A stretch of 44,077 nucleotides of DNA from the sequence record JN984867; one strand, 5' to 3'. Below the pieces are notes generated by a model that saw nothing but the letters and a program-made list of their open reading frames with translations, was not told the origin of the DNA and searched no databases. This stretch comes from Shigella phage EP23. This document shows positions 5,845 to 42,513 of the stretch, piece after piece; the first letter of the stretch is position 1; the number at the start of each line of letters is the position of its first letter. A program made the translations under genes and the position numbers.

Positions 5845-5925
5845 TTTTGTGTCCTCGTTGTTGGGGCTTTCGCCCCGTTTGGTTTAGTTGAATTTGATGC
5901 CGCCACCAACAGGCCGCTTTGTTCG

Positions 5926-6438: not shown

Positions 6439-6462
6439 TATCATTTCCTCGTTGTTGGTGTG

Positions 6463-6532
6463 CAACCAATATAATGCAACCAACATCTGCAATGCAAGCG
6501 AATTTTGCGATTATTTTTATCGCTGATAATAT
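6463..6532. promoter_or_regulatory. divergent promoter region: leftward TTGCAT-N18-TATATT (clamp-like gene) and rightward TTGCGA-N16-TAATAT (scaffold gene), with two TGCAACCAA motifs
   Basis: Hexamers read directly; shares an extended block (TGCAAG-C/T-GAATTTTGC) with the 24.9 kb promoter. Confidence 0.5.
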
Positions 6533-12050: not shown

Positions 12051-12380
12051 CAAATCGGGACAGGCGGGACGTCCCGATTTATCCCGTTCTGTCCCGCACA
12101 TCTAAAAACTGCATATTTACCCACTACGATTGCATAAACTAAAAGCGGGACAGGGGTGCTGTCCCGATCTGTCCCGCCCCTCAAAAGTGAATGGCTATGC
12201 GGTTTTTCTGCATAAAACAAACGGGACAGAAAGCGGGACAGAATGAGGCGGGACAAAGCGGGACAGCACCCCTGTCCCAGTCAGTGCTGCCGCGGGTTTT
12301 GACCGATCGGGACAGGCGGGACAACTCCCAGTCTTTCAGACTAGACGGGGGTCAGCGGCCCCCCTCGTCTGAGACTGAAT
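12040..12380. repeat. iteron-rich non-coding region, copy 1 (GCGGGACA / TGTCCCG direct and inverted repeats, CTGCATAAA motifs, 70-bp shared hairpin-containing block at 12308-12377)
   Basis: At least 10 GGGACA-type half-sites, palindromes CGGGACGTCCCG and GGGACAG-N6-CTGTCCC; block identical to 39263-39332. Confidence 0.8.
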
Positions 12381-12446: not shown

Positions 12447-15089
12447 ATGGCAGATCAGGCAGCGGGCATCACGCTCAAGGCGGACGTCGCGCAAATTAAA
12501 ACGGCTAATACTGTGCTGGACACATTTGCGCAGAAATCCGAGAACACAGAACAGAAAGTAAAGAAATTAAACGACACCCTCGGCAAGTCGAAAAAGGTTA
12601 CTGGCGACGCCGCGGGCGGAATGGAAAAGTTAGCGACTGAATCGCAGCGTGCCGCCGATGGCATGACGAAACAGGAGCGACTCGCCAGCCGATTAGGCAT
12701 GTCGACCAAAAACCTGGGATTCGCATCGCGGAACGCCGCATTCCAGTTACAGGATATTGCGGTGACGCTTGAGATGGGTATGCCGGTGCACCGCGTTATG
12801 CTTCAGCAGTTACCGCAGCTTACTGGGGCGTTTGGCGGACTGGGTAACACGCTGCGATATGTTGCGGGCTTTCTCGGCCCAGTAGGGATCGGCCTTTCAG
12901 CATTAACGGCGACGTTAGGCGTAGGGGTGGCAATTACGACCCGCGCAGAGAACCAGGTGGCGGCGCTTAATAAGACGCTGGCGCTGTCCGGTAATATTTC
13001 AGGCCTCACAGCTAACCAGATCCTTGTGCTGTCCGAGAACGCCGAGCGCATGGGCGGGTCATTTCGCAAGACGCGTGACACAATCCAGGCGCTGGCGGCG
13101 GCGGGTGTGAAAGCGGGTGGTGACTTCGGCGCATTGGCTAAGGTAGTTAATGACTTTGCGAAGGTGTCCAGCCAGCCGATCGAGGATGTGGTAGCGGCGG
13201 TGGCGAAGCTGTCAACAGACCCCGTTGGCGGACTGCGTGCGCTGGCGGATAAGTATCACGTCGTAAACGAAGCGCAGATCCAGCAGGTACAGTCGCTCGT
13301 TGATGCGGGTCGTGAGACAGACGCGGTTGCGTTGGCTAACAAAACAGCCGCTGCGTCGTTCACCAGCATGACCAATGAGATCAAGGCGAACATGGGTACG
13401 CTTGAGCGATCTATGAACGTCGTCACATCGGCAGCCAAATCAATGTGGGACGCCATCCTGGATGTGGGCCGCGCGCAGTCCTCCAATGAGTCCGAGATGA
13501 AAGCGCGCGAATCACTACAGCGCATGACCACGGCTTACTATGCCGAGATGAAAGCGGTAAACGCTGCCGGTGGGGTAATGACTGAAGCGCAGAAAGCACG
13601 TATTAACATGCTTTACAGCGAACTGGTCGCCCAGGAAAAAGTGGTGGCGTCGCTCACCCTGCGTAACCGTGCTGAGCGAGACAACGCCCGCGCCGCAGAC
13701 GAATCCGCAAAGGCGAACGAGGAGGCCAACCGCACCGCCCGCGACCGCGCTGCGTTCGAGAAGGAGTACGCAACTAACGCGAAGAAGCGCGCCGACGAGA
13801 TCGCCCGCCTCAATTTGCTGAATAAGCGCGGCGTTATTGATGAGAAAGAGCTTGCCGAGGCGGTGAAGCAGGTAAACGAGCGTTATAAAGACCCCGCCCC
13901 GAAGAAGGCCGCCGCTGTACGAGTCGATGCCGGTATGAAAATGCTGGAAGTCGCACGGAGCGAACTGGCCCAGCTTCGAGAATCCGGCAAGCAGATCGAA
14001 GCCAACGCGTCTACGCAGACCCGCACGCAACGCGCTCAAGCGGCCTTAAACAAGCTGATCGCCGACAATGAGCAGTTAATCGCGGCGAGCAAAGAAAGGG
14101 CGCTAACGGCAGCAGAGAAGCAGCAGATGGTAGAATTCGGACGCGTGAAGGAAGTGCGCGAGCAGATTGTCGAAGAAGCCAAACTACTGGACGCGAAAGA
14201 GAAGCAGGTTAAGGCGCACGCGCAGATCGACGCCTTCGTTAAGAACCAGAATGCCGAGCTAAAAGCCACCGCGGCGGGCTATGCGCTTTCTACTCGAGAA
14301 GCGGCAAACCTGCGTGAAGAATTGCAGCTAATCGACCGCCTGAAGCGTGTAGGCGCTAACGATACCGATATTGACAAGGCGGTGTCTAAGCTGCGGGAAG
14401 TGCAGGAGGCGCAGACCGGCGCTAACGCCTCGCTATGGGATGGATTCAGTCGCGGGCTTAAGGATAGCGTGGATGAAATGGGTAACGGATATACGCAGAT
14501 GGCGTCGCTCACGAAATTCACGTTCAGCGCTATGCAGGACACAATGAACGAGTTTTTCGAGACGGGCAAGTTGAACGCAAAGGATATGGTTAAATCCATC
14601 CTGAGCGAGTTAATCAAGCTGGCTACCTCGCAGGCGTTCAAGTCTATCGTTAGCGCTTTCGGTGGTGACGGCGGCAAAAACGGATTGTTCGGCGCTATCT
14701 TCTCTGGCCTCACTAAGAATGCGGACGGCGGAGCGTACGCAGGAGGCAATCTCGCGGCCTATTCGGGGAAAGTGGTAAGCCAGCCTACCTTCTTTAGTTA
14801 TGGCGTCCAGGCGTTCGCTAAGGGTGCGGGATTGATGGGCGAGGCTGGACCAGAGGCCATCATGCCACTGAAGCGCGGGCCGGACGGGAAACTGGGCGTT
14901 GCCGCGTCGGGCGCAGGCGGTGGTATGGTCGTGACGACTAACGTTTACACGGGGACTGGTAAAACGGATACCAGTGTCAGCGGGCCGGACCCCCGTACTG
15001 CGCAAGCGTTCGGCAAGCAAATCACCGAGGCGGTGAAGGCCGAGATCGTGAAAGCGACGAAACCGGGTGGTGTACTTTACAAACGATGA
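12447..15089 (+). CDS. tail tape measure protein
   Basis: About 880 aa, long A/Q/K/E-rich helical protein with Gly-rich C-terminal region; ATG 12447 chosen (track ORF starts 12408). Confidence 0.85.
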   Translation: MADQAAGITLKADVAQIKTANTVLDTFAQKSENTEQKVKKLNDTLGKSKKVTGDAAGGMEKLATESQRAADGMTKQERLASRLGMSTKNLGFASRNAAFQLQDIAVTLEMGMPVHRVMLQQLPQLTGAFGGLGNTLRYVAGFLGPVGIGLSALTATLGVGVAITTRAENQVAALNKTLALSGNISGLTANQILVLSENAERMGGSFRKTRDTIQALAAAGVKAGGDFGALAKVVNDFAKVSSQPIEDVVAAVAKLSTDPVGGLRALADKYHVVNEAQIQQVQSLVDAGRETDAVALANKTAAASFTSMTNEIKANMGTLERSMNVVTSAAKSMWDAILDVGRAQSSNESEMKARESLQRMTTAYYAEMKAVNAAGGVMTEAQKARINMLYSELVAQEKVVASLTLRNRAERDNARAADESAKANEEANRTARDRAAFEKEYATNAKKRADEIARLNLLNKRGVIDEKELAEAVKQVNERYKDPAPKKAAAVRVDAGMKMLEVARSELAQLRESGKQIEANASTQTRTQRAQAALNKLIADNEQLIAASKERALTAAEKQQMVEFGRVKEVREQIVEEAKLLDAKEKQVKAHAQIDAFVKNQNAELKATAAGYALSTREAANLREELQLIDRLKRVGANDTDIDKAVSKLREVQEAQTGANASLWDGFSRGLKDSVDEMGNGYTQMASLTKFTFSAMQDTMNEFFETGKLNAKDMVKSILSELIKLATSQAFKSIVSAFGGDGGKNGLFGAIFSGLTKNADGGAYAGGNLAAYSGKVVSQPTFFSYGVQAFAKGAGLMGEAGPEAIMPLKRGPDGKLGVAASGAGGGMVVTTNVYTGTGKTDTSVSGPDPRTAQAFGKQITEAVKAEIVKATKPGGVLYKR

Positions 15090-17861: not shown

Positions 17862-20800
17862 CGATTATCTACGACGTCACGGGCCATAAAGGCGGCGGCG
17901 CAAAACCGCACACCCCACAGGAGACGCCTGACAGCCTGCATTCACTGGCTAAAGCCCGCATCTTGCTAGCACTGGGTGAAGGTGAGTTTGAAGGCATCCC
18001 GACCGACAACGAATTACGGCAGCGCGTTTATTTGGACGGCACGCCGATCCAGAACGCCGACCGATCCGAAAACTTCCCCGGCGCGCGCGTGGAGTTCCGC
18101 CCAGGCACACAGCACCAGGACGTTATTCACGGATTTTCCGCGGTGGAAAGCGAGCAGACAGTGGGTGTAAAACTGGAATACGGCACGCCGTGGGTGCGCC
18201 AGATTAACGACACCAGTTTGGACGCCGTGCGCATTCGAGTCGGTATACCGGCCCTGTACACTAACGAAGATAATGGCGACCTGGTGGGCGGGCGCATCGA
18301 CTATAAAATCGTTGTGTATACGGATAACGCCGATCCGCGCGAGTTCCGCTTCGCTGCCGTTGGAAAAACAATGTCGCTGTACGAGCGCGACCACCGCATC
18401 GAGCTACCGTCTAACGTGAATACCGGCTGGCGCGTGGAGGTGCACCGCTTAACGGCTGATTCCACCTCTGCGAAAGTGGTCAATGATATCCGGGTGCAAT
18501 CCATTACGGAGATTATCGACGCCCGCCTGCGATACCCGCTAACCGCGCTGTTGTTCGTGGAGTTCGACGCTAAGGCTTTCCAGAATATCCCGCGCGTGTC
18601 AATCAAGTGCAAAGGTCGCAAGGTGTTGGTCCCGAACAACTACGACCCGATTAATCACACCTATTCGGGGGACTGGGATGGCACGTTTAAACGCGCATGG
18701 ACGGATAACCCTGCGTGGCACTGGTACGATATTTGTATTACTGAGCGCTTTGGCCTCGGTCGTCGTATCAAACCGCAAATGCTAAACCGATACGCGCTTT
18801 ACCAGGTTGCGCAGCGCTGCGATCAGCTGGTCAGCGACGGCAACGGCGGGCAGGAAATCCGATTTAAGAATGATATGTACATCCAGTCGCAGACCGACGC
18901 CTGGACCGTGCTTAAGGATTTAGCCGCTATCTTTGCCGGTATGACCTGGTGGGGCAATCAGATGTTAAATATCGTCAGTGACCAGCCGGTAGCCGCGGTA
19001 TCGCACACTATCACAAACGCCTCGGTGATTGATGGTCGATTCGACTACGCATCCGGTAGCCAGAAAACCCGGTATTCCACGTTCGCGGTAGCATACGGCA
19101 ACCCGAAGAACCACTACGAAGACGCCATCGCAACGGGCCAGCGCGTCGAACTGGTGCGCCGCCATAAGATTAACCGCCTCGATATTACGGCGATCGGCTG
19201 TACGCGTGAGTCCGAAGCGCAACGCCGCGGGCACTGGGCGCTAATCTCCAACCAGCTTGACCAGCAAGTTAGCTTTAAGGTTGGCATGGAAGGGCTGTTT
19301 TTTATCCCGGGAAGCGTAGTTGCGATCGCGGATACTAATATTTCCGGCGGCTTCGAGACACGCGGCGGACGCCTGTTGTCAGATCCAGGGACGCGTACTG
19401 TGCTGAACACGGACAGCGAAATCACGTTCCGCCCTGGCGATAAATTCTTGGTGCGCACCGATAGCGGGAATGTGGAGACTCGCGAGATTGCCAGCGTCAA
19501 CGGCAACAAGGTTACGCTGAAAACAGCACTGAACGCTGACCCGATTCCCGATCAACCGTTTTGCGTTGATGGCGACGATATCCAGTTGCAGAAGTTCCGC
19601 ATCACCGACCTGGAATATGACGACGCTACCAGCACTTTCTCGGTGCGCGGGATTGAATACAACGACAGCAAATACGATGCCGTTGATAATGGCGCTCGCC
19701 TTGATCCGGGCATCTTCACGCAAGTTCCTGACGGCGTAATGAAGGGGCCGGAGTCGGTAATCATCACCCCGTCGCAGATCTCATCGCAAGGCCAGCTAAT
19801 CACCAACGTGGATATTGTTTTCCCGCCGGTGAAAGATGCCGTTGTGTACGAAATCCAGTGGCGGCGCACCAGCTTGCAGAATATGGAAATCCAGTGGGGT
19901 AACGACTGGGTGAACCTTCCACGCACGGCATCGAACGGCGCGCACATCCCTAACGTGTTCTCCGGCAACTACCAGGCACGCGTCCGCGCGATCGGTATGG
20001 GTGAGATTTCATCCCCGTGGGTGGAGTCCGCCATCACGCCGGTGGAAGGTCGCCTCGGCGGGCTTAACGCGCCGATCATCACCAACGCGATTTCTGGCCT
20101 CCACCAGATTTTGTGGAAGTGGAACCATAATAACGCCGCGACGGATATCTCATACACCGAGCTTGAAGTGCGCAAGACCGGTGAGACGGAATGGAAATTT
20201 CTTACCAACGTCCCATATCCAGGGGCGGAGTATGCACAAACGTCTCTGGAGTTCGGTATCTATCAGCAGTTGCGCGCCCGCGTAGCGGATAAAATCGGCA
20301 ACCTGTCGGACTGGTCGGCCCCGTTTGAAGGGCAGGTAAGTAACAAAGTTGACGAGTACATGAAGGGGCTTGACGATGAGTTCTTGACTTCTGAGGATGG
20401 TAAACGCTTCCAGGAAGCGATCGACACCATGCCGCAAGGCATTTACGAGGCCATGCTCACCGACGCGCAGCAAATGTTCAACGCCCGCGCTGAGTACCAG
20501 GGGATTTATGCGGAAATCAAGGTGGCGTATAACGTGGCAGCAGACGCCCACCAGGCCGTCGCGCAACTGGAGACGTTGATCGGCACGCGCCTTGACGAAG
20601 CTGAAGCGGCGATTCACACGTTGCAGACGGCGCAGAGTACGCAAGAGCAGGCCTTCGCCCGGTATCAGCAGACTGTTGCCGCTAAGTTCTCGGAGCAGGA
20701 AGCCGCTATCCAGCAGGTACAGACGGCAACGGCGGACGTAGCTGGCGCACTGGCGGAGTATAAGACCCAGGTCGCAGCACAGTTTGGGCAGCAGTCTGCC

Positions 20801-21950: not shown

Positions 21951-22031
21951 GTTATCATCTCCTGTATTGGGTTGAGTTTTAGTATTACACCGCTCAACCA
22001 AGAATGCAACCAATTTTATGAGGATTTAGCT

Positions 22032-24904: not shown

Positions 24905-24947
24905 ACTATAGTGCAACCAACCTATTGGTTGCAAGTGAATTTTGCAA
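24905..24947 (-). promoter_or_regulatory. leftward promoter TTGCAA-N18-TATAGT overlapping perfect inverted repeat TGCAACCAA-ccta-TTGGTTGCA (24912-24933)
   Basis: Hexamers and palindrome read directly on minus strand. Confidence 0.55.
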
Positions 24948-25392
24948 CGTTTATTGCGTAAATTTTCGGGACCAAATCACCACACGCCCGACGAATTGCC
25001 GCGATGTTCTTCGGGCAGTCCTCAATGATGACCAGTTCCGACACGTCCGCATAGCAGACCATTTTGAACACGGCGCACGCCTTAAACTCAGGCGGCGGGG
25101 TGTCGTCCAGCATGTGGCGCATAAACAACCGGCCTACTGGGAAGACCTCCAATTGCTCGGCGGTGGTGTCCCAACATTCTCGCTGCCGGTTTGTCAGATA
25201 CGCGATCTCGAAGCCTTGCTCTTTATACATGCGCAGCAGCGGCAGCATATCCATGTTCAGGTCTTCGCGGACGTGCGCTTTGTGCCACTTCGCCCAAAAG
25301 GTGGATTTCGTTTTTATCCCCGGCACCAGGTCGGCGCGCGCATCGCTTGATCCATTAATAACGCCATCCAGATCACAAATCAGTAATTTCAT
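24922..25392 (-). CDS. HAD-superfamily phosphatase (putative nucleotidase / 3'-phosphatase)
   Basis: N-terminal LLICDLDGVI matches HAD motif I (DxDG); 156 aa; GAGGA RBS. Confidence 0.55.
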   Translation of the reverse strand: MKLLICDLDGVINGSSDARADLVPGIKTKSTFWAKWHKAHVREDLNMDMLPLLRMYKEQGFEIAYLTNRQRECWDTTAEQLEVFPVGRLFMRHMLDDTPPPEFKACAVFKMVCYADVSELVIIEDCPKNIAAIRRACGDLVPKIYAINVAKFTCNQ

Positions 25393-25613
25393 TTCAATTC
25401 CTCAATCAAATTTGCACGAACAGTACGGGCGGAAAACGTGTCACACACAAGATGACAGCGGGCAGTCATTACAAGCCAGCCAGTAAGGTCCATGCCCAGG
25501 AGGTGTTCTGGCCGTGACACGCGACGCACTTTGTTCTCCCTCGGGTTGATTTGGTAGCGTTTAACAATTTCGTCCACGACGCGCATACTGCGATCAACGA
25601 TTAAGATATTCAC
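25389..25613 (-). CDS. hypothetical small protein
   Basis: 74 aa ORF overlapping neighbours by a few nt; apparent GTG start. Confidence 0.3.
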   Translation of the reverse strand: MNILIVDRSMRVVDEIVKRYQINPRENKVRRVSRPEHLLGMDLTGWLVMTARCHLVCDTFSARTVRANLIEELK

Positions 25614-26079
25614 GTAGTTCTCCCTCGCTCATTATTTCAATTTGTGCGCTGCCGGTGGGCGGCGCTTCGTCGAAGATTATCAATTGCTGGCACTTGTTAT
25701 TGCTCGGCCCGACTTCACCAGTTACAGCGTGAATAAATCGGATACGCCAGTCCAGAAGAATTATCAGGTTTGCAGTCTTCCGGGCCAGCTTCGCCCACTT
25801 AGTCGACGTGTCCTGATTCAGTAGCATGACGGTCCGGCGTCCGTGCGCTGCGCACTTGACCCACGGCAGCGGATCGGAATACGGCGGGTTGCACCACTTC
25901 CACCCTTTCAACTCTGACCAGTCCACCTCAAGCGCGCTGTGCTCTGCCGTGAAGTAACGCGGTAGAAGGTGGTTGGCATCGCTCGCCGCCATATCGTAAC
26001 GGAATCGGTACTTCCGGCGCAGCGGTTTAAATAAAGCTGGCGGCGTGCGCCAGCTATCTTTTTGCTCACTCTTCTGCAT
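25594..26079 (-). CDS. DNA N6-adenine methyltransferase (phage Dam-like, orphan)
   Basis: WRTPPALFKPL...DMAASDANHLLPRYFT...WCNPPYSD: NPPY catalytic motif and Dam-type N-terminus; 161 aa. Confidence 0.7.
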   Translation of the reverse strand: MQKSEQKDSWRTPPALFKPLRRKYRFRYDMAASDANHLLPRYFTAEHSALEVDWSELKGWKWCNPPYSDPLPWVKCAAHGRRTVMLLNQDTSTKWAKLARKTANLIILLDWRIRFIHAVTGEVGPSNNKCQQLIIFDEAPPTGSAQIEIMSEGELREYLNR

Positions 26080-26610: not shown

Positions 26611-26922
26611 ATAAAAATTTGGGTCGCGCGCAACGTCTACCAAGTAAAGGTTACTAATGCGGTTGCCGTAGTGGCCAGGTGTGCGCTGACGGCACACTAC
26701 GGCATAGCCTGGAGGTATTGTATTGCCAGTCTCGATAATCCACGCCACGCGTGCGCCAGACAGCGTCTTGCCGTTGCACTCGATACGAGTACCGCCATCA
26801 GTAGTATTGAGGTTGCCAATCTTGCAGCCGGTGGATTTCAGACGGATGACTCCGGTTTTGCTGTCGTAGGTGAATAGCTGGTTAGTCATTGCGACCGAAA
26901 AATCGATTGGTTCGAATGTCAT
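26605..26922 (-). CDS. HNH-endonuclease-like protein with apparently substituted catalytic residues
   Basis: LFTYDSKTGVIRLK...GKTLSGARVAW...GNRISNLYLV follows the phage HNH_3-type pattern, but the expected His/Asp positions read A and C-R. Confidence 0.45.
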   Translation of the reverse strand: MTFEPIDFSVAMTNQLFTYDSKTGVIRLKSTGCKIGNLNTTDGGTRIECNGKTLSGARVAWIIETGNTIPPGYAVVCRQRTPGHYGNRISNLYLVDVARDPNFYA

Positions 26923-26923
26923 T

Positions 26924-28351
26924 TTAAATTTTCCTCGTTTTCTTAGCTTTCATGTATTCCATCAAGTCGTCCTGGATATCTCGCCTACTGTCGCGACGCT
27001 CGGCGACCAATTCGTCCAGTGTCCCGCGAGCCTGGATAATGTAGACGAATACTGGTCGAGGGTGTCCGGCTTGCATCTGGCGAACCGGCCCGATACGTTC
27101 AACGATCTGCGAAAAGTGCTCAAAGTTCCAGGTATCGGAGAAGATTGCCAGGTGATGTCCGCCGTCCTGCAAGTTAAGGCCGTGGCCTGCCGATGCCGGG
27201 TGTGCAAACATGATGGGGATCTCGCCCCTGTTCCACGCTTCCATATCCTTATTGCCCTGCTTACCCTTACCCAACGCGACGCCGTGCGGAAATTTCTTCT
27301 TAAGACGTGCCAGATCATGCTTGTACTGATACGCAACGAGCAACGGCGCGCCGTTCAACTCCTCCACGATACTTTCCAGCGCGTCCAGCTTCGCGTCGTG
27401 AATCTTCACCCACTCGTCGGTCCGTTCGCCGTCTTCGTCCACCTTATACACAGCGCCGGATGCAAGCTGAAGGCACTTAATTGTCTTCGCCGCGGCGTTC
27501 GCCGCTTCCACTGTTCCGCTTTCCAGTTCGGCAAATAGCTCGCTTTCAAACTGGTCATAAATCTTGCGGGCTTTCTTCGGCAGGTCCACAACAACCGGCG
27601 TATAGATTGGCTTGTCACACCCGAAGTATTCAGCCGCATCAACGGTTAGCGACACGTCGGACAGTCGTTGTTGTATTTCTTTCTCGGAGTTCTTAAGCGG
27701 GGCGTGCTGCATCGTGAAGCTGCCAGGCTTAACAGGCTTGCTAATAAACCAGCGGTCCGTGAACGCCTTATAGCTACTGCCGAGACGTTCGCCGCCGTCG
27801 ACAAACCACGTCTGACCCCATAGGTCTTTCAGCCCGTTCGGTGCGGGTGTGCCAGTCAGGTTAATCCAGCGCTTGACGTGCTTATGTGCGATCGCTGCCA
27901 GCGCACGGGCGCGCTTACTTCCCTGCTTGCTTCTATAGCCTTTCAGCTTAGTGGATTCATCGGCAACCACGACCGTAAAGGGCCACTCGTCGCCGCAATA
28001 CTCAACAAGCCACTCAACTACATCATAGTTAATACAAACCACGTTAGCGTCGCTCTCAAGCGCAGCGATGCGGTCCTTCTCTGGCCCAGTGCCGTCTACT
28101 ACCAGCAAGGCTGGGAAGCGCCATTTCTCCTGTTCCGGGGGCCATGTACCGGACGCAACGCGCAGCGGGGCCAGCACCAGTACGCGGTCATCCTGGTTGG
28201 ACAGGATGCCAGTCTGGAACATTTTATTCAGCGCCCACATGGTCGCGCCGGTTTTACCCGACCCCATTGTCGCCCATATATTGCATCGCTTATGCTTGAG
28301 GATGAACGCGGTTATCAACTTCTGATATTCGCGACGTCGGAAACGTGCCAT
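26924..28351 (-). CDS. SNF2/DEAD-like superfamily-2 helicase
   Basis: Walker A MGSGKTGAT, DExx-like VVADESTK; start taken at ATG 28351 (MARFRRR), track ORF runs to 28441. Confidence 0.7.
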   Translation of the reverse strand: MARFRRREYQKLITAFILKHKRCNIWATMGSGKTGATMWALNKMFQTGILSNQDDRVLVLAPLRVASGTWPPEQEKWRFPALLVVDGTGPEKDRIAALESDANVVCINYDVVEWLVEYCGDEWPFTVVVADESTKLKGYRSKQGSKRARALAAIAHKHVKRWINLTGTPAPNGLKDLWGQTWFVDGGERLGSSYKAFTDRWFISKPVKPGSFTMQHAPLKNSEKEIQQRLSDVSLTVDAAEYFGCDKPIYTPVVVDLPKKARKIYDQFESELFAELESGTVEAANAAAKTIKCLQLASGAVYKVDEDGERTDEWVKIHDAKLDALESIVEELNGAPLLVAYQYKHDLARLKKKFPHGVALGKGKQGNKDMEAWNRGEIPIMFAHPASAGHGLNLQDGGHHLAIFSDTWNFEHFSQIVERIGPVRQMQAGHPRPVFVYIIQARGTLDELVAERRDSRRDIQDDLMEYMKAKKTRKI

Positions 28352-28831: not shown

Positions 28832-29110
28832 CTATGCGACCAATTCAGCAACCAATAAATCGCAGTCGGATATGTTGTCGATAACGCGAACGTCAGCACC
28901 GCGGCGGGCCATTCGCTCATGTTCACGTACCTGGTGCGGCTTCGGTTTTCCTCCGGGGCGCTTCACTTCGACGAACACTATTTTGCCGTTGATGATAATA
29001 ATCAGGTCGGGCGCACCTGCGCGCCCCTCCCATGCCAGTTTTCGGCAGAATCCGCCAACATCTTTCACCCGTCTCATCAGGTGGCTTTGAATCTTGCCTT
29101 CTGGTGTCAT
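28832..29110 (-). CDS. VRR-NUC domain nuclease (PD-(D/E)XK)
   Basis: GAPDLIIIINGKIVFVEVKRPGGK core; start ATG 29110 overlapping polymerase stop. Confidence 0.55.
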   Translation of the reverse strand: MTPEGKIQSHLMRRVKDVGGFCRKLAWEGRAGAPDLIIIINGKIVFVEVKRPGGKPKPHQVREHERMARRGADVRVIDNISDCDLLVAELVA

Positions 29111-32100
29111 TACTTGCGGTAGCGATACATGCAATCGCCCTCTGCGGCAAGTGGGAAGCCTTTCGCCCAAACCGGCAGGTCGCACATCAGCGCGCACAAC
29201 TCCTCGGTTGTGTAGTCGTCGGTATCCGGCACTTCGGTTATCAGCTCATCGTGTACGGAAAGTACGATCTCATACCCCGCAGCTTCAACGCCAGGCATGG
29301 ACCATGCGAGAATATCGCGGCACAACGCCTGTACGATGTTTTCCGTCAGTTTGCCGCCGTAGGTATACTGGAATCCCCACTGGCGCGTCGTCTGATTCTC
29401 GCCCTGATATTTAATGCGTGTGCTGGTGCGCTTCTTGCCGGTGTCTTCGTCGATCTCGGTCGTGACAGACAGCGCGATGCCAGGGTAGCTCATGATGCGC
29501 CCTGACGGCAACTCAATTTTAAGCCACCACCCCGCCGCGTTCGGGTCGTCGCGCTCCTCGTCGAAGGTCGGGTCATGCTTCGCCTTCGTTCGAACAATTT
29601 TGAGCGCTTTCCTGCCATCCGGGCGAACGTTCGCGCCAGCCCAGTACGCTTTGCCCGGATTGCGGATCGCGCAGAGCACCGCGTCCTCCAGTTCGGCCCA
29701 AAAGGCTACCGTCATCGGGTGAGACTCACGCCACATACGTTTGATCGCGTCACACGTCAGCCACACGTTTTTCGGCAGTATGTAAGTTGGGCGCTCGTCT
29801 TTCTTGCCAGGCTTCGGCGGGCGCTTCTCCTCGTTAATGCGAGCGTACTCATAACCCCGCTTCGCCGCCGCCCAAATGTGATCCGGGAATGTGCCCTTCA
29901 TGACGTCAGCCATAGTGTAAAGGTCGAGGCCCAGGTTTTTAGCGAACTGCAAGAACGCCGCGACGCCGCCACCATAGCCCAGGCCAAGCTCGCAGTTATG
30001 CGCCACCAGAAAACCAGACTTAGACGCAATAAGGAACCGGTTTCCGTCTTCCACATCAATCAGGTCGTAAACCGGCTCGCAATAGGTTAACTTCCCGTTC
30101 CAGTTCAGCAATGCGGGTAAGGGCTTCATCGTACTTTCTCTGAAGCTCGGGCACGCTGCGCCGGTTACGGCAGTTTTCCGAACGGCTGACAAACCGAAGG
30201 TTTCCAGGCTCATAGTCGCCGTCTGTATCGATCCTGTCCATTTCGAAGTCTGGCTTATCCCAGCCGTCCAGCGTTTGAACGTAGAGAAGAAACGACCTTT
30301 TATCTCTCTTCCATTCGTCACATACGGCAATCCCACGACCGCCGTAGTTTTTATACCCTTTGGCGCGGGGGTTTGTCGTTCGTGATATTGCCGCTGACAG
30401 CCGGTTGAGTAGCCGCGTTCTGTGCGCATCGTCTGGCATTGCGTCATCGTAGCAAAAATACTGTTTACGATACCGCTTTGTCGCTTCAATTGCGCAGAGG
30501 TTGCATTGGGATGTTTTACCCCTTCGGACGTTGTCATACCCGACGCGTCCTGGCATCGCTCCGCAATCACATTGGGCCAGCAGTTGTCTGTGACCCTGTC
30601 GTTTTGGTAATTCGCGCAGGATAACCAGGCGTCCATACCTCTCGCCAGGGCGCGGACCATCGTGCACCTGTCTGAAACGAGTTGCCTTGCCTCCTTCCAT
30701 GAATGCGTCAAGATTTTGTGGTCTTCTGTCATCAAGACCCCGTCCACGTCTATCACTGGTTTCCACCCCATAAGGTGCGCGCCTTTTGTACTCACCCATT
30801 TTTCGCCGTTCCATACTTTATCCGTTGATGTTACGGCCATAATATCCTTGAACCCGCCATTGGTCAATACTTGGGTATGGCGGTGCAAGCAAGCCTTACC
30901 GATCTGGCGTAAGTCCTTGCGGTTGGCTTTAATGTAATCCGGGTCAAGGCCGAACATCTTACCGGCAGTCTCGCAATAGATATCGCGACCGGCCTTAAAG
31001 ACCATTAACGCTGTTTTCTCGCCAGCGATCCAGGCAAGTCCACGCCCTTCCACATTGGAGTAGTCCGCTACGACAAACTTCTTGCCCTTCGCCGGAATAA
31101 TGCACCCGCGAACGGTCGAGGCCGTTAGCTTCGATATGTCATACGCCCAGTGTGCGGTCCCGCGTAACAGGGAGTTGATGCCGTTGGTGAGCATGTGCGA
31201 CCGGACCCAAAACGAGACGTCGCTTTCACCCTCGCGGCGTTTAATCTTCCCTTCGTGGTCGTCGCTGTACTCGCCACGCGCCAGGTTTTGAGGCTGGAAG
31301 CCTTTGCCCGCCCAGCGCAGCGTGCGCTTTGCGCCGCCATACTGAAGACACCCACGGCGGCGACCATCTGCGGATAAGCCGTTAACTAGCGGATTGTACT
31401 TAGTCGATGCCGTTGATGACGCCCCGAGGCGCATTTCGATAAGCGCTTTGCCTTCGTCGGGGAAGTCCGGGTCTTCAAGCAGGTCGTTAAGCGTGGATTT
31501 CTGCGCGTTGTGGATCGTGAACGCCGGGGCGATATCACGCAGGATTGGCAGGAAGTCATTGCCTGTCAGCTTACCGCCAAATCGCTCCCAGGCTTCTTCC
31601 TTCAATTCTTCCTTATGCGCCTGCACCGCTTTGATCGCGGCGTTCGCCAGGTCAACGTCGACGTAGAAGCCGCGGTCGTTAATCAACTGGTCGATGAGCA
31701 GGATTTCATCTTCCTTAGGCGAGTTTCCCCAGTCCGGTATGCGCCAGTAGACTTCACGCATTGCGATAATATCCAGCGCGGCATAGCGCAGAAATTTGGC
31801 CCATTCTTCCGGGTGAGTCTCGCGAGTGTAGCGGCGGATTTTGTAGGTCTTAGGGGTAGGCTTACAGAATCGGTTAATCAGCGCCTTGCCTGCCTTATCC
31901 TTCGCGTGCTCTGCGTCAACGCCCAGAACCTGGCACTGCATATCGAGGCTACCGGGCAGCGCGTGGCGAAAGGCCATAATCATAGTGTCTTCGATCTGGC
32001 TTACCGGCAGGTCAATACCCCACTTCTCGCGGATAACCAGGCGGTCAAACAGGAGGCCGTTAGCCATCACTATTTTAGCCTTCTTGCGGGATACCCGGCG

Positions 32101-32298
32101 GAGCGCCTTGCGCAGTTCACGCGGCATTGTGGGGGATTCAGTGGCATCCCATGTCTGCACGCGGCCCTCGTCTATGGCGTAGGTGCAAATCATAATCTCT
32201 GTGGTTGGGTGCTCCGCGTAGGCGTACGCCCCAACTTTCTTCAGGTCCACCCCGCTAAATGTCTCGGTGTCGAGAAACAGGCGTTCGAAGTCTTTCAT
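29110..32298 (-). CDS. family A DNA polymerase with 3'-5' exonuclease domain, interrupted by an intein in motif B
   Basis: Exo motif FLDTETFSG, motif A ADYSNVEGR, motif C LSVHDEL; motif B split as RQIGKA / intein / CELGLGYGG. Confidence 0.9.
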   Translation of the reverse strand: MKDFERLFLDTETFSGVDLKKVGAYAYAEHPTTEIMICTYAIDEGRVQTWDATESPTMPRELRKALRRVSRKKAKIVMANGLLFDRLVIREKWGIDLPVSQIEDTMIMAFRHALPGSLDMQCQVLGVDAEHAKDKAGKALINRFCKPTPKTYKIRRYTRETHPEEWAKFLRYAALDIIAMREVYWRIPDWGNSPKEDEILLIDQLINDRGFYVDVDLANAAIKAVQAHKEELKEEAWERFGGKLTGNDFLPILRDIAPAFTIHNAQKSTLNDLLEDPDFPDEGKALIEMRLGASSTASTKYNPLVNGLSADGRRRGCLQYGGAKRTLRWAGKGFQPQNLARGEYSDDHEGKIKRREGESDVSFWVRSHMLTNGINSLLRGTAHWAYDISKLTASTVRGCIIPAKGKKFVVADYSNVEGRGLAWIAGEKTALMVFKAGRDIYCETAGKMFGLDPDYIKANRKDLRQIGKACLHRHTQVLTNGGFKDIMAVTSTDKVWNGEKWVSTKGAHLMGWKPVIDVDGVLMTEDHKILTHSWKEARQLVSDRCTMVRALARGMDAWLSCANYQNDRVTDNCWPNVIAERCQDASGMTTSEGVKHPNATSAQLKRQSGIVNSIFATMTQCQTMRTERGYSTGCQRQYHERQTPAPKGIKTTAVVGLPYVTNGREIKGRFFSTFKRWTAGISQTSKWTGSIQTATMSLETFGLSAVRKTAVTGAACPSFRESTMKPLPALLNWNGKLTYCEPVYDLIDVEDGNRFLIASKSGFLVAHNCELGLGYGGGVAAFLQFAKNLGLDLYTMADVMKGTFPDHIWAAAKRGYEYARINEEKRPPKPGKKDERPTYILPKNVWLTCDAIKRMWRESHPMTVAFWAELEDAVLCAIRNPGKAYWAGANVRPDGRKALKIVRTKAKHDPTFDEERDDPNAAGWWLKIELPSGRIMSYPGIALSVTTEIDEDTGKKRTSTRIKYQGENQTTRQWGFQYTYGGKLTENIVQALCRDILAWSMPGVEAAGYEIVLSVHDELITEVPDTDDYTTEELCALMCDLPVWAKGFPLAAEGDCMYRYRK
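29995..30891 (-). mobile_element. intein (299 aa) in DNA polymerase motif B
   Basis: Insert starts with Cys (codon 30889-30891), ends ...LVAHN followed by Cys (+1); Hint-like blocks CLHRHTQVLTNGG, TEDHKIL, VYDLIDVEDGNRFLIASKSGFLVAHN; excision restores R-x3-K-x3-LG-x2-YG. Confidence 0.8.
30056..30814 (-). CDS. HNH homing endonuclease encoded in an alternative frame inside the intein
   Basis: YGRLVIL...CDCG...RGKTSQCNLC and GYKNYGGRGIAVCDEW...DRIDTDGDYEPGNLRFVSRSENCRNR match phage HNH/His-Me finger proteins; frame differs from polymerase (30814 mod 3 = 1 vs 32298 mod 3 = 0); true start may be an internal Met (~30700). Confidence 0.7.
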   Translation of the reverse strand: MERRKMGEYKRRAPYGVETSDRRGRGLDDRRPQNLDAFMEGGKATRFRQVHDGPRPGERYGRLVILRELPKRQGHRQLLAQCDCGAMPGRVGYDNVRRGKTSQCNLCAIEATKRYRKQYFCYDDAMPDDAHRTRLLNRLSAAISRTTNPRAKGYKNYGGRGIAVCDEWKRDKRSFLLYVQTLDGWDKPDFEMDRIDTDGDYEPGNLRFVSRSENCRNRRSVPELQRKYDEALTRIAELEREVNLLRAGLRPD

Positions 32299-33254: not shown

Positions 33255-33285
33255 TTGGTTGCTAATTTACTTGGTTGCGCCTGAG
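33255..33285 (-). promoter_or_regulatory. pair of TTGGTTGC motifs 18 bp apart upstream of SSB-like gene
   Basis: cttggttgctaatttacttggttgcg read directly. Confidence 0.35.
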
Positions 33286-36081: not shown

Positions 36082-36274
36082 ATATCTCCGATTGGTTAAG
36101 TTTAGGTGTCGACCATTAACTTCGTCGGTGGCCTTAACATAGTGCCAGGTTACGCGTTCTCCCGTTCGGGTAGTGGACCTGGTTATATAATCACGGTTGG
36201 GAATCCTGACACTTCGATCCGGCCCCTGCGTTGCCCCTCTCCAGTTTGCGTCCTGCATCCTGTCGACGAGGTGA

Positions 36275-36303
36275 ATATTAGATTGGTTGCAGAAGGGAGT
36301 CAA
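36275..36303 (-). promoter_or_regulatory. leftward promoter TTGACT-N17-TAATAT with TGCAACCAA in the spacer
   Basis: Read on minus strand: TTGACTcccttctgcaaccaatcTAATAT; ~190-nt leader before ATG 36081. Confidence 0.55.
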
Positions 36304-36420: not shown

Positions 36421-36449
36421 TTGACACCCTGCGGTTTTAGGTGTAGTTT
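36421..36449 (+). promoter_or_regulatory. rightward promoter TTGACA-N17-TAGTTT
   Basis: Consensus -35 read directly upstream of gene at 36481. Confidence 0.55.
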
Positions 36450-36480
36450 CATTGGTCATTAACCAACCGGAGACAGAATA

Positions 36481-36810
36481 ATGAATATCAACGACGCAAT
36501 CGAAATGCTAACGAAGACTGTCTGCAGTGAGACTAGCCGGTCCTGGGCGTATACCGATGCCGTGGGGGCGGTGCTATTTGAAATCGAACGTCTGCGACTT
36601 ACCGAAAAAGAATTGCGCGCGAAGCTGGAATTACTCAACGGTACGGCAGCCAGCAAGCTGCAAAAGCACAATGAAGAAATGGAAGAATACAAAAAACAGG
36701 TTATCCGTTTGCGCGCCGAGGGAAAATCCTGGGCGATGATCGCTGAGTTGACAGGAATTAATCAGAGCACCGTGCGCTCCTGGGTACGCAATAACAAAAC
36801 TTCGAAGTAA
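36481..36810 (+). CDS. HTH DNA-binding protein (putative transcriptional regulator)
   Basis: C-terminal KSWAMIAELTGINQSTVRSWVRN helix-turn-helix; GGAGA RBS; first rightward gene. Confidence 0.5.
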   Translation: MNINDAIEMLTKTVCSETSRSWAYTDAVGAVLFEIERLRLTEKELRAKLELLNGTAASKLQKHNEEMEEYKKQVIRLRAEGKSWAMIAELTGINQSTVRSWVRNNKTSK

Positions 36811-39085: not shown

Positions 39086-39169
39086 ATCCTATTTTGAGTG
39101 TTTTTAGCTGGTCGCATTGGTTGCCGTGCAGTATAAATATAGTGAATAGTTATGCAATAAAACTGCATA

Positions 39170-39335
39170 AAGTAAGCGGGACAAAAAGCGGGACAAACTT
39201 GGGGCGGGACAAAGCGGGACAGCACCCCCGTCCCGCCCCGGATGACGCGGCCTGGAGAGGAGCGGGACAGGCGGGACAACTCCCAGTCTTTCAGACTAGA
39301 CGGGGGTCAGCGGCCCCCCTCGTCTGAGACTGCAT
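39170..39335. repeat. iteron-rich non-coding region, copy 2 (GCGGGACA repeats, CTGCATAAA motifs, 70-bp block 39263-39332 identical to 12308-12377); candidate origin
   Basis: Direct read; lies just downstream of primase-helicase gene. Confidence 0.8.
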
Positions 39336-39484: not shown

Positions 39485-39535
39485 ATATTGGTTGCATTCA
39501 TGCCAGCACCCTGCTAGATTGGTTGCACACCAACA
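39485..39535 (+). promoter_or_regulatory. rightward promoter region with two TTGGTTGCA motifs
   Basis: attaatattggttgcattc...agattggttgcacacc upstream of gene at 39549. Confidence 0.4.
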
Positions 39536-39884: not shown

Positions 39885-40154
39885 ATGACCCGTAGACGCG
39901 CAAAACAGCTTTCGTGGCATATCCCCCTGCATTGCATACGAATATGGGCTAAGAATGCGAATGCGGGGGACTCTGTGTACTGGTGCTATCGCGACGACGT
40001 TAAGCCGTTGACGCAGACTCGCTACTTGCACCAGTTCGCCGCGCAACATGATTTCTATGTGCGGACCTCCTTGCAACCAATGGGGATCCGTATTACATTA
40101 CGCCGGAAGCCCGCAGTCGAGCGGGTAGGCAAACACTGGAGACTGAGCAAATGA
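39885..40154 (+). CDS. hypothetical protein
   Basis: 89 aa ORF. Confidence 0.4.
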   Translation: MTRRRAKQLSWHIPLHCIRIWAKNANAGDSVYWCYRDDVKPLTQTRYLHQFAAQHDFYVRTSLQPMGIRITLRRKPAVERVGKHWRLSK

Positions 40155-42483: not shown

Positions 42484-42513
42484 TTGACTTGCAACCAACA
42501 TAGACTCTATACT
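42484..42513 (+). promoter_or_regulatory. promoter TTGACT-N18-TATACT with TGCAACCAA in spacer
   Basis: Read directly; followed by 26-codon micro-ORF (42543-42623) and gene at 42685. Confidence 0.55.

Follow-up and report, generated by a model that had tools for sequence, protein, structure and literature searches.

An invariant 8-bp word in the predicted promoters of a Dhillonvirus genome: a putative operator network with a link to the replication origin

Nearly all predicted internal promoters in the genome of a virulent E. coli phage of the genus Dhillonvirus, which are of the sigma-70 type, carry the same short word, GCAACCAA (extended form tGCAACCAAt), at fixed registers. We infer that the word is the site of a sequence-specific DNA-binding protein, that its copies act as operators at which binding represses, and that the likeliest reader in Dhillonviruses is the HTH protein encoded at 36481-36810; to this reading as a whole we give a probability of roughly 0.45. 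Coordinates refer to the window, that is, the whole stretch of 44,077 nucleotides that was analysed.

On both strands of the window, 17 copies of GCAACCAA were counted against 1.70 ± 1.36 in dinucleotide shuffles, where the largest count was 6 and 17 was reached in none of 100; the 9-mer TGCAACCAA has 12 exact occurrences. By our own gene map, 14 of the 17 copies fall within the 3,542 bases of non-coding DNA (8% of the window; binomial P = 2.5e-13), a density 53-fold above that in coding DNA, and shuffled intergenic DNA held 0.24 copies on average and 3 at most (2000 shuffles). Two of the three "coding" copies lie within the final codons of one gene, immediately before the next. An earlier note on this DNA had reported at least 14 copies, essentially all intergenic, and had named lack of enrichment, or an equal frequency within coding regions, as grounds against a network; both its count and its view of the placement are borne out by the figures above. 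Its coordinates were right to within 1-5 bases (the sites given as 33258 and 33276 occupy 33255-33262 and 33271-33278), and its list was incomplete, missing those at 39117, 39397 and 40073. The statement that such a word is expected well under once by chance was an overstatement, since 1.7 copies are expected; the enrichment is still about tenfold.

Most sites are paired, 12-31 bp apart, in direct or inverted arrangement, and reading along the local genes about half of the copies appear as GCAACCAA and about half as TTGGTTGC. The perfect palindrome previously noticed around 24912 is present at 24912-24933 as the everted TGCAACCAA-ccta-TTGGTTGCA, and it is the sole palindrome among the sites. 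The longer block said to be common to two promoters, TGCAAG[CT]GAATTTTGC[GA]A, has exactly two occurrences (Table 1). No structured RNA was found by an Rfam scan of the window, and a structured RNA reading was rejected for the early-left leader, whose folding does not surpass that of shuffles (z = -0.04). No description of the word was found in the literature searched by genus, by phage names and by the sequence itself.

The promoters in the window are all consensus predictions, of a kind that overall is no commoner there than in shuffles, and five of the seven consensus promoter-like matches in non-coding DNA overlap a site and aim at the downstream gene. One site-overlapping predicted promoter is annotated as a promoter in the HK578 record. 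The word takes at least three registers: it may be the -35 itself (TTGG-TTGCNN-17-TAnnnT), abut the -10 upstream, or follow the -10. A TAnnnT starts 0-2 nt past the word at 6 of 17 sites, against 0.9 expected, and TTGG[TTGCNN]-17-TAnnnT is found three times in the window and, among 57 sites from other lineages, seven times, with about 1 expected. Three word-bearing predicted promoters keep a near-consensus -35 (TTGACT, TTGACC), and the two examples in which the word had earlier been placed in a spacer, TTGACT-18-TATACT (42484-42513) and TTGACT-17-TAATAT (36303-36275), were recovered by the consensus scan. TATAAT at 6470-6475 is a perfect -10 with no -35, and the two predicted early promoters beside the HTH gene lack full sites. 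As in operators, the sites overlap the -35, the spacer, the -10 or +1 of predicted promoters; this geometry, in either orientation, gives the word an operator-like look, suited to a DNA-binding protein, and since orientation relative to transcription is mixed, a steric operator is a better fit than an element recognised by polymerase.

Table 1. Copies of the word, variants and associated features in the window (promoters are consensus predictions).
Feature	Position	Strand	Context
GCAACCAA	6462-6469	+	Directly upstream of TATAAT 6470-6475; divergent region between leftward RusA-like/Nmad5 genes and rightward scaffold/capsid genes
GCAACCAA	6476-6483	+	Directly downstream of TATAAT 6470-6475, same region; this -10 is thus sandwiched, with one copy on each side
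Shared block TGCAAGCGAATTTTGCGA	6493-6510	+	Imperfect inverted repeat of the word's TTGCAA half; 10 nt after the motif pair
Variant TCAACCAA	21994-22001	+	Overlaps -10-like AAGAAT 22000-22005 (partly read by eye); between leftward lipoprotein-like gene and rightward tail-fibre gene
GCAACCAA	22006-22013	+	Just upstream of the fibre-gene ribosome-binding site
Palindrome left arm	24913-24920	+	Spacer of predicted leftward promoter TTGCAA-18-TATAGT (24934 to 24905)
Palindrome right arm	24925-24932	-	Overlaps -35 TTGCAA of the predicted 24934 to 24905 promoter and the last codons of gene 24922-25392
Shared block, second copy TGCAAGTGAATTTTGCAA	24930-24947	+	Inverted repeat GTTGCAA-N7-TTGCAAC
GCAACCAA	26579-26586	+	Minus-strand spacer, abuts -10 TATATT (26576 to 26571); register partly by eye
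GCAACCAA	26596-26603	+	Minus-strand TTGG-TTGCAT is the -35 (26599 to 26594); 17-nt spacer to TATATT
Variant GCGACCAA	28836-28843	+	Spacer of predicted leftward promoter TTGCTG-17-TATAGT (28851 to 28823)
GCAACCAA	28848-28855	+	Supplies -35 of the predicted 28851 to 28823 promoter; last codons of VRR-NUC gene
GCAACCAA	33255-33262	-	1 nt downstream of -10 TAAATT, predicted promoter upstream of SSB gene
GCAACCAA	33271-33278	-	Spacer of predicted TTGACC-17-TAAATT (33292 to 33264), 1 nt from the -10
GCAACCAA	36283-36290	-	Spacer of predicted early-left promoter TTGACT-17-TAATAT; homologous promoter annotated in HK578 GenBank record
Weak inverted half-sites ATTGGT-catta-ACCAAC	36451-36467		Read from sequence; just downstream of predicted rightward early promoter TTGACA-17-TAGTTT (36421-36449) of HTH gene
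Candidate binder, 109-aa HTH protein	36481-36810	+	Domain matches and predicted structure
GCAACCAA	39117-39124	-	32 bp past primase-helicase stop, GCGACCAG variant directly after; left flank of iteron element
GCAACCAA	39397-39404	+	Right flank of iteron element
GCAACCAA	39488-39495	-	Plus-strand TTGG-TTGCAT is the -35 (39492-39497), 17-nt spacer to TAGATT (39515-39520); predicted promoter of operon starting at 39549
GCAACCAA	39519-39526	-	Overlaps end of -10 TAGATT (39515-39520) and +1 position
GCAACCAA	40073-40080	+	Sole copy well within a gene (39885-40154); conserved in HK578
GCAACCAA	42491-42498	+	1 nt past -35 of predicted TTGACT-18-TATACT; promoter lies after bidirectional terminator, before phosphoesterase gene
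Variant GCGACCAA	42514-42521	+	Directly downstream of -10 of the predicted 42484-42513 promoter

Across 12-17 Dhillon-like genomes or loci the columns of the word are 99.9% identical, against 89.4% in neighbouring intergenic columns, and 99% of word columns, versus 63% of flank columns, are conserved at 95% or more in Dhillon-like loci. The word is thus conserved above its surrounding non-coding DNA, as an operator would be, and the alignments support strong purifying selection on it. In Pubbukkers and HK578 the sites hold their places while the inter-site spacers change. The word is also enriched at equivalent gene boundaries in Eiauvirus and some Guernseyvirinae; the identical 8-mer is found in phages of Escherichia, Klebsiella, Serratia and Edwardsiella, and the core proteins of the genera that carry it are only 45-70% identical. 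The base that follows it is T in Dhillonvirus and C elsewhere. It is absent from Salmonella, Enterobacter and many E. coli relatives of the same genome plan. In a sample of IMG/VR, dispersed non-tandem copies were seen only in Dhillon-like contigs; a scan for word pairs was dominated by chance pairs and coding tandem repeats, and loci with at least four copies numbered 52 for the word versus 24 for a permuted-word control, the excess of origin-like arrays being small. The everted palindrome gave 69 matches in scattered taxa among 185,579 species genomes, approximately the chance level, with none in E. coli, Klebsiella or Salmonella. Longer blocks are common to some sites, namely the shared block of the window and L003 19001 and 34812.

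Judging from domain matches and a predicted structure, the best candidate and most likely reader of the word in Dhillonviruses is the 109-aa protein, whose gene is the first of the rightward early operon. It matches HTH_23, HTH_28 and Sigma70_r4_2 above the Pfam cut-off, and its HTH is of the sigma-70-region-4/LuxR/resolvase type. In the AF2 model (pLDDT 84) a long helix (residues 21-79), which is probably a coiled-coil dimer, is combined with a C-terminal HTH (84-107); besides the HTH there is this helix only, with no receiver, ligand-binding or catalytic domain. Foldseek superimposes the HTH at about 1 Å over 34-40 residues on those of SdiA/GerE/NarL, IstA and resolvases; as the domain is short, every E-value exceeds 0.6. 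NarL/LuxR- and resolvase-type proteins, which this HTH resembles in fold, read 7-9-bp half-sites in direct or inverted pairs of varied spacing. In every Dhillon-like phage the last 60 residues are all but invariant, which matches an invariant DNA target, and the N-terminus is hypervariable. The gene's own predicted promoter has no full site but weak half-sites only (36451-36467), which may form a low-affinity autoregulatory site.

The family of the 109-aa protein is confined to Dhillon-like phages: no homologue was detected in Eiauvirus, in VLCpiS11a-like phages or in Otaku, all of which have the identical 8-mer, and for this reason we treat the protein as a candidate binder. Proteins of about 110 aa with a C-terminal HTH are also encoded in two other motif-bearing lineages, as eiAU gp54 and Otaku gp37. 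The former has a weak HTH_7 match, and copies of the word lie 214-290 nt upstream of its start, in a divergent intergenic region shared with the tape-measure gene. Remote homology of the 109-aa protein to these two was rejected, as BLASTP and phmmer returned nothing and hhalign aligned the HTH only (for eiAU gp54, with a probability of 8.6% and differing recognition helices). In VLCpiS11a-like phages no reader candidate was found. The earlier suggestion of this protein as the binder therefore remains reasonable for Dhillonviruses, given its early operon, HTH type and near-invariant C-terminus, and does not extend to Eiauvirus and some Guernseyvirinae. Similarly, the idea of a single co-regulating factor gains from sites that are promoter-embedded, beyond chance and apparently under purifying selection, and is weakened by the presence of the same word where no homologue of the HTH protein is detected.

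Other proteins were weighed as readers. The phosphoesterase at 42685-43827, earlier described as an HTH-phosphoesterase, has a calcineurin-like phosphoesterase domain only and is anti-correlated with the word; it is disfavoured, a homologue of 70% identity being present in motif-free St162 and none in motif-bearing VLCpiS11a and Otaku. Neither the C-terminus of the primase-helicase nor other shared replication proteins hold a 25-residue window whose conservation is specific to motif-bearing phages. In Guernseyvirinae and Eiauvirus, Cro-like HTH_3 proteins are found in motif-bearing and motif-free phages alike, and those of the motif-bearing ones have no common recognition helix. The Nmad5 protein (5080-5844) has a phyletic pattern of 7/10 versus 1/19, yet it is absent from word-carrying HK578 and Otaku. 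The Dam-type methyltransferase (25594-26079) co-occurs with the word in five complete genomes, yet its family is far wider, with over 1000 phage records, among them those of lambdoid, Stx and Vibrio phages. In Pubbukkers, HK578, eiAU-183, VLCpiS11a and Otaku the annotation includes neither an RNA polymerase nor a sigma factor, and the approximately 20 window proteins scanned yielded none, their sole sigma-like match being the region-4-type HTH of the 109-aa protein. A lineage-spanning dedicated transcription factor was not found among the motif-bearing phages.

The word also adjoins the replication origin and clusters there, a tie that the earlier note had missed. In each motif-bearing lineage, copies lie at or just past the primase-helicase stop, beside lineage-specific iterons (39117 and 39397 in the window, nine at 26870-27635 in eiAU, four in Otaku and five in L018). 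Kagunavirus-type relatives have no dispersed copies; what they keep is two or three copies of GCAGCCAA, all of them around the primase-helicase stop, and the left copy corresponds in position to 39117 of the window and lies just before GAATAGTTATGC. In the IMG/VR contig L133, which is distantly related (pol, SNF2 helicase, VRR-NUC, SSB and exonuclease show 28-39% identity; PrimPol N-terminus), the primase-helicase gene is directly followed by 9-10 tandem copies of TTGGTTGCAC, phased at 10 bp, and an AT-rich stretch; the word itself was the query by which L133 and the other arrays were detected. The tandem origin iterons of the window are GCGGGACA, with GCAACCAA as single flanking copies; the tandem phased arrangement is partly seen in eiAU. 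The duplicated, ori/crr-like iteron element at 12183-12378 has no GCAACCAA beside it, so that the word flanks only one of the two element copies, and 13 of the 17 copies of GCAACCAA lie 0.9-17 kb from the origin region, at predicted promoters of other genes. The clustering at the origin and the origin-confined variant of Kagunavirus-type relatives suggest an older, replication-linked role. A part in replication polarity was rejected, as VLCpiS11a and eiAU do not show the change of site orientation at the origin that is seen in Dhillonviruses, and so was a priming-site geometry, the flanking copies being oppositely arranged in different lineages.

If the 109-aa protein does read the word as an operator, one HTH would occupy each 8-9-bp site, and because two HTHs could pair flexibly, sites of differing distance and orientation would be accommodated. 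Since paired sites cover the -35, the -10-side spacer or +1, a bound dimer or higher oligomer would compete with RNA polymerase. Most internal transcription units would then be switched jointly: the replication genes, the SSB gene, the 39549 operon, which leads into the lysis genes, the scaffold/capsid unit and the fibre unit. The distribution of the word points to one hitherto undescribed DNA-binding regulator that may control most phage genes through it. As to why a virulent phage would repress nearly every promoter, our guess is temporal shut-off.

There are parallels for such a network. Cluster A mycobacteriophages (L5/Bxb1) are temperate and have stoperators/operators, 13-bp sites strongly oriented with transcription, for the repressor gp71/gp69. 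Like the word, stoperators are short and asymmetric, number about twenty, lie almost all in short intergenic regions and fall in some cases on promoters; one phage protein reads all copies with one HTH per site, which we count as a likeness to the proposed reading. Unlike them, the word is 8-9 bp long, has mixed rather than uniform orientation relative to transcription, belongs to a virulent group and sits on core promoter hexamers. No temperate-phage immunity repressor is indicated, no integrase or CI-type repressor being annotated in the relatives examined, and Dhillonviruses are lytic according to the literature. The KorA/KorB circuit of IncP-1 plasmids ties together replication, maintenance and transfer genes. 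Its regulons also place a fixed operator at many promoters of a mobile genome, overlapping the -35/-10 or nearby, although KorA/KorB operators are 12-13-bp palindromes read by known dimers, and the word is a single asymmetric site in variable pairs with one palindrome.

The word could instead be primarily a replication-origin element, read by a conserved replication protein from the shared pol/helicase/SSB/exonuclease module, such as the PrimPol-helicase; promoter copies of the word would then couple transcription to the amount or state of that protein, in the manner of DnaA or SV40 T antigen. This is a serious contender that we nevertheless consider doubtful. It accounts for the copies near the primase-helicase stop of every motif-bearing lineage, for the confinement of GCAGCCAA to that place in Kagunavirus-type relatives and for the tandem TTGGTTGCAC array of distant L133, and it predicts that no lineage-spanning dedicated transcription factor exists, as none was found. 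Yet no segment of the primase-helicase or of another shared protein is specifically conserved in motif-bearing phages, the iteron duplicate lacks adjoining GCAACCAA, site polarity about the origin is inconsistent across lineages, L133 and the arrays came to light via the word itself with a permuted-word control only modestly different, and replication alone leaves the sharp -35/-10 registers unexplained. Origin iterons whose readers, primase-helicases or initiators, regulate transcription as well (P4 alpha with ori/crr, plasmid Rep proteins, DnaA, SV40 T antigen) resemble the word in clustering by the primase-helicase gene and an AT-rich/iteron region, with further promoter copies. Unlike such systems, the window has GCGGGACA as its tandem iterons and in the ori/crr-like duplicate, and GCAACCAA is not confined to the origin and the initiator's own promoter, most copies being at promoters far from the origin. 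A bolder version, rather improbable in our view, is that an ancient origin-linked signal of the PrimPol-helicase/family-A polymerase module, read by a conserved protein of replication, has come to occupy nearly all promoters of Dhillonvirus, Eiauvirus and part of Guernseyvirinae by spreading. If true, one and the same protein would initiate replication and switch transcription globally in a virulent phage, a logic like that of DnaA or T antigen which to our knowledge is not described for siphophages, and the depth of L133 together with the change from GCAACCAA to GCAGCCAA would mark a co-evolving protein-DNA pair.

The registers could also reflect a phage-specific promoter class, in which RNA polymerase, aided or redirected by a phage factor of the MotA/AsiA or lambda CII kind, reads TTGG-TTGCNN as a special -35, or the word beside a -10, and the sites activate a temporal gene class rather than repress it. 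The occurrence in several lineages of a -35-like TTGCA[AT] spaced exactly 17 nt from a TAnnnT, word-bearing promoters with a perfect -10 but no -35 such as that at 6470-6475, the early promoters beside the HTH gene without full sites and the match of the candidate's HTH to sigma-70 region 4 all agree with this, and T4 MotA boxes, which work by sigma appropriation with AsiA, are likewise a phage-specific 9-bp word that replaces or overlaps the -35 of host-type promoters; T4 origins also contain MotA-box promoters. MotA boxes and sigma elements, however, keep one register (about -30 for MotA) and one orientation, whereas the word takes at least three registers in both orientations relative to the -10; the three promoters that retain a TTGACT/TTGACC -35 should fire unaided, tandem origin arrays are unlike promoters, no homologue of MotA or AsiA was seen, and a phage RNA polymerase or sigma factor is neither annotated in the relatives nor found among the proteins scanned. 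We therefore hold this promoter class to be unlikely, though worth keeping in view. The phage might also borrow a protein of its host, such as a nucleoid protein or a regulator of the GntR/FadR or LacI type, that is conserved in Enterobacterales; this would explain one 8-mer in phages of four host genera with no obvious common dedicated regulator. Host boxes include the PdhR/UxuR-type ATTGGT-N2-3-ACCAAT and the GTTGCATT pairs of CytR, and we take the ACCAAT end of the word to resemble PdhR/UxuR half-sites and TGCAAC the CytR octamer. The dyads of these regulators are not matched by the word, which forms an everted palindrome or direct pairs, the former at chance level in species genomes and without recurrence in Enterobacterales; moreover, the word is missing from many relatives of the same genome plan, its dispersed copies are limited to Dhillon-like contigs in the IMG/VR sample, and the base after it depends on the lineage. 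A host regulator is accordingly disfavoured as quite improbable. That the word has no function, being a remnant of promoter duplication or recombination at module boundaries or a chance effect of composition, is very improbable indeed: the sites do lie at gene-module boundaries and some share longer blocks, but the word stays invariant while flanks and inter-copy spacers diverge, it is conserved across genera with strongly diverged core proteins, and shuffles never came near the observed count.

Dhillonviruses are among the commonest small virulent coliphages, with at least 159 matching GenBank records that include members of the BASEL collection and many therapy candidates, and next to nothing of their gene regulation is annotated: three consensus promoters are given in the HK578 record, and the authors on eiAU report that they detected no phage transcription factor. 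Through one invariant word shared by nearly all internal promoters the transcription units can be mapped, and together with the candidate protein the word provides a directly testable regulator-operator pair. It may also serve as an engineering handle, for synchronised switching of phage genes and as orthogonal operator parts. Finally, the occurrence of the word in three taxa with no common recognisable regulator, and its link to the origin, would mean either that very different small HTH proteins have one target or that a conserved replication protein is the reader.

The 8-mer GCAACCAA (hereafter the word) occurs 17 times in the window against 1.70 +/- 1.36 times in shuffles, and an unbiased word count places it at or near the top of the over-represented 8-mers and 9-mers. 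On a gene map drawn from ORFs, the annotation of relatives and PHROG boundaries, 14 of the 17 copies fall in non-coding DNA (3,542 bases, 8% of the window; binomial P = 2.5e-13; 0.24 copies in shuffled intergenic DNA), at a density 53-fold higher than in coding DNA, and two of the three "coding" copies lie within a gene's last few codons. The variants GCGACCAA and TCAACCAA (21994, 28836 and 42514) stand 11-23 bp from exact copies. The enrichment and the avoidance of coding DNA expected by the earlier note are borne out, and so are its perfect palindrome, its examples in promoter spacers and the 18-bp block common to two promoters. A second 8-mer, ACGGCAGC, is a strand-polar word with 24 copies (1506, 2329, 3835 ... 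43911) against ~2.9 expected, 21 on the plus and 3 on the minus strand; since it is found in every reading frame and in genes of either orientation, it is not codon-driven, and most Guernseyvirinae and Eiauvirus relatives likewise have it as their most enriched 8-mer.

The window covers almost the whole genome of a Dhillonvirus, an HK578-like virulent siphophage of E. coli. Its nucleotide identity with over 130 GenBank phages is 91-93%, and its gene layout agrees with that of annotated Pubbukkers and HK578. Its closest relative, Escherichia phage P-GXEC-L2P5 (GenBank PQ843332.1), is 99% identical over part of the length; that record is 88.6 kb, about twice the genus genome, and, as several places match the query, may be a concatenated or chimeric assembly. 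The DNA polymerase ORF, 29110-32298 (-), encodes 1062 aa vs ~730-760 aa in HK578, VLCpiS11a and eiAU, and an intein-containing polymerase is annotated in relatives, so the window's polymerase probably carries an intein. Two leftward genes, 5080-6438 (-), lie within the rightward structural module and would be driven from a divergent region with the word pair 6462/6476; one encodes an Nmad5 (nucleotide-modification-associated) protein, where HK578 has another gene, and the other matches a PHROG family annotated as RusA-like resolvase, a DNA-polymerase-beta-clamp match being weak.

When the motif regions were aligned to 12-17 Dhillon-like loci, identity was 99.9% in word columns vs 89.4% in neighbouring columns, and 99% vs 63% of columns were at least 95% conserved. 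Paired copies are fixed in place while the intervening spacer varies (e.g. tatgcttat, tacggttac, ctagttat). In Dhillonviruses the preferred base on both sides of the word is T; outside the genus the following base is C. The word is a real feature under strong selection, embedded in predicted promoters.

A consensus promoter scan of the whole window returned promoter-like sites no commoner than in shuffles; five of the seven non-coding matches overlap a word copy and face the next gene (Table). In the positional profile the word favours three registers relative to promoter hexamers. In the first, TAnnnT begins 0-2 nt past the word end, as it does at 6 of the 17 sites where 0.9 would be expected; in the second, a TAnnnT hexamer runs right up to the word; in the third, the word itself, as TTGG-TTGCNN, forms a -35-like hexamer with a spacer of exactly 17 nt to TAnnnT (three cases in the window and seven in the 57 sites taken from four other lineages; ~1 expected). 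Two layouts are typical: -35 / word / -10 / word (36303, 33292, 42484, 6462-6483) and word-as--35 / word / -10 (26603, 28855, 39488). A serious, though less probable, alternative to operators is that the word is part of a factor-dependent promoter class. Word pairs are 12-31 bp apart, six direct and one inverted, and copies point both along and against transcription. Neither of the two early promoters beside the HTH gene has a full copy; weak inverted half-sites, ATTGGT-N5-ACCAAC, lie downstream of the rightward one. The 5' leader of the early-left operon (36200-36282; ~190 nt between the predicted start and the gene at 36078) is nearly invariant among Dhillonviruses, and a 43-57-bp piece of it is ~90% identical to unannotated intergenic DNA of the Drexlerviridae phages sortkaff, tunus and PHB17; the leader matches nothing in Rfam and folds no more stably than shuffles do (z = -0.04).

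Table. Features of the window and of related phages, loci and IMG/VR contigs (L numbers: loci and contigs)
Feature	Source	Position	Direction	Remark
Structural genes	window	1-23.7 kb	rightward	
Replication genes	window	23.7-36.1 kb	leftward	
Divergent early control region	window	36.1-36.5 kb		
Small HTH gene, primase-helicase, small genes, lysis genes, phosphoesterase	window	after the early control region	rightward	
Predicted promoter overlapping word	window	36303->36275	leftward	consensus scan; annotated promoter in HK578 too
Predicted promoter overlapping word	window	33292->33264	leftward	consensus scan; upstream of SSB gene
Predicted promoter overlapping word	window	42484-42513	rightward	consensus scan
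Predicted promoter overlapping word	window	24934->24905	leftward	consensus scan
Predicted promoter overlapping word	window	6464->6437	leftward	consensus scan
Iteron word GCGGGACA	window			
Iteron word ACTCGCAA	VLCpiS11a			
Iteron word TCCGCACA	Otaku			
Iteron word GGGGGAGA	St162			
GCAGCCAA	St162 (L005)	12650-12990		
GCAGCCAA	L027, L038-L041, L044-L046			around primase-helicase stop
Origin-like array of TTGGTTGCA[C/A]	L133	6300-6640		
Origin-like array of TTGGTTGCA[C/A]	L117	9039-9266		
Origin-like array of TTGGTTGCA[C/A]	L138	3405-3489		
Origin-like array of TTGGTTGCA[C/A]	L065	2754-3181		

The presence of the word outside the genus was unexpected. Klebsiella phage VLCpiS11a (Guernseyvirinae), whose nucleotide similarity to the window (~70%) is limited to part of the primase-helicase gene, holds 13 copies (1.25 expected), Serratia phage Otaku 12 (1.85 expected) and Edwardsiella phage eiAU-183 (Eiauvirus) 23, of which 16 are intergenic; Salmonella phage St162 has zero. 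The 41 loci collected by a primase-helicase profile search fall into two groups, one with 3-7 copies per 10 kb and the other with 0-1. Equivalent positions recur across lineages: upstream of the SSB gene and of scaffold/capsid genes, in the divergent early region, near lysis genes and directly after the primase-helicase gene. In VLCpiS11a, TTGG-TTGCAA-17-TATAGT at 19001 is among the strongest predicted word-bearing promoters and would drive a gene (19078-19326) with a Tad2-like (anti-Thoeris) domain. A host regulator reading the word is disfavoured, since close relatives on similar hosts are without it and dispersed copies are seen in this phage lineage only; moreover, the everted palindrome gave 69 scattered matches in 185,579 species genomes, about chance, and does not recur in Enterobacterales chromosomes.

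Tandem iterons after the primase-helicase gene are lineage-specific, one kind per lineage, and word copies flank or join them (39117 and 39397 in the window; nine in eiAU). The "motif-free" Kagunavirus-type relatives keep two or three copies of the one-base variant GCAGCCAA, all of them near the primase-helicase stop and origin; the left copy occupies the position homologous to 39117. A second serious, though less probable, alternative is that an origin-linked replication protein reads the word and has a second role at promoters. A ~200-bp element occurs twice, 27 kb apart, at 12183-12378, in the gap preceding the tape-measure gene, and at 39137-39335, after the primase-helicase gene, the latter being the putative origin. 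Both copies contain GTGAAT(A/G)G(T/C)TATGC, CTGCATAAA, several GCGGGACA iterons (of the 17 in the window, where ~1.8 are expected, 13 belong to these two clusters) and a hairpin, and their final 73 bp are identical; this layout resembles the P4 ori/crr pair.

Scanning IMG/VR for word pairs returned mostly chance pairs and coding repeats. One distant contig, L133 (65% GC), carries distant homologues of the window's replication module (pol, SNF2 helicase, VRR-NUC, SSB, exonuclease) and 9-10 phased TTGGTTGCAC repeats with an AT-rich stretch directly after its PrimPol-VapE gene. In L117, L138 and L065 similar arrays adjoin primase or helicase genes that are unrelated; the array contigs are unrelated (41-65% GC), and the neighbouring gene families are four: PrimPol-VapE, DUF3987, DnaG-type and unknown. 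Since it was the query that picked out these arrays, and a control with the permuted word gave only a moderate difference, they are a lead, not proof.

In Dhillonviruses the best candidate reader is the 109-aa product of 36481-36810, which matches Pfam HTH_23, HTH_28 and Sigma70_r4_2 above cut-offs. Its AF2 model (pLDDT 84) has a 59-residue helix followed by an HTH that superimposes on LuxR/GerE/NarL, IS21 transposase and resolvase HTHs, with E-values non-significant for a domain so short. The family is found only in ~45-kb contigs resembling Dhillonviruses. Its C-terminal 60 residues, LELLNGTAASKLEKHN...GKSWAMIAELTGIN.STVRSWVRN, are almost invariant among the homologues (P0010-P0024, L002, L018), and the N-terminal half is hypervariable and repeatedly replaced (81-142 aa variants), which points to an exchangeable sensor or interaction module joined to a constant DNA-binding module. 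Proteins of ~110 aa and like layout occur in two other motif-bearing lineages (eiAU gp54, with a weak HTH_7 match, and Otaku gp37), of which the HTH alone aligns, and weakly, to the Dhillonvirus protein; word copies lie 214-290 nt upstream of the gp54 start, in a divergent region common to gp54 and the tape-measure gene. No comparable protein was found in VLCpiS11a. Cro-like proteins, segments of the primase-helicase and other replication proteins, Nmad5 and Dam methyltransferase were tested as readers and set aside, as was the phosphoesterase, a binding candidate of the earlier note.

A description of the word was not found in the searchable literature, and the eiAU paper did not detect a phage transcription factor. 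Enrichment, selection and promoter embedding give partial support to the single co-regulating factor proposed at the outset; against it, BLAST, phmmer and profile searches found no homologue of the HTH protein in other motif-bearing lineages. The most economical mechanism would be that the copies serve as operators bound by a sequence-specific protein, which in Dhillonviruses would be the early coiled-coil/HTH protein, a model to which we assign a probability of about 0.45; the protein's own part in it is likely, at a confidence below that of the model. Such a protein would compete with RNA polymerase at most internal promoters.
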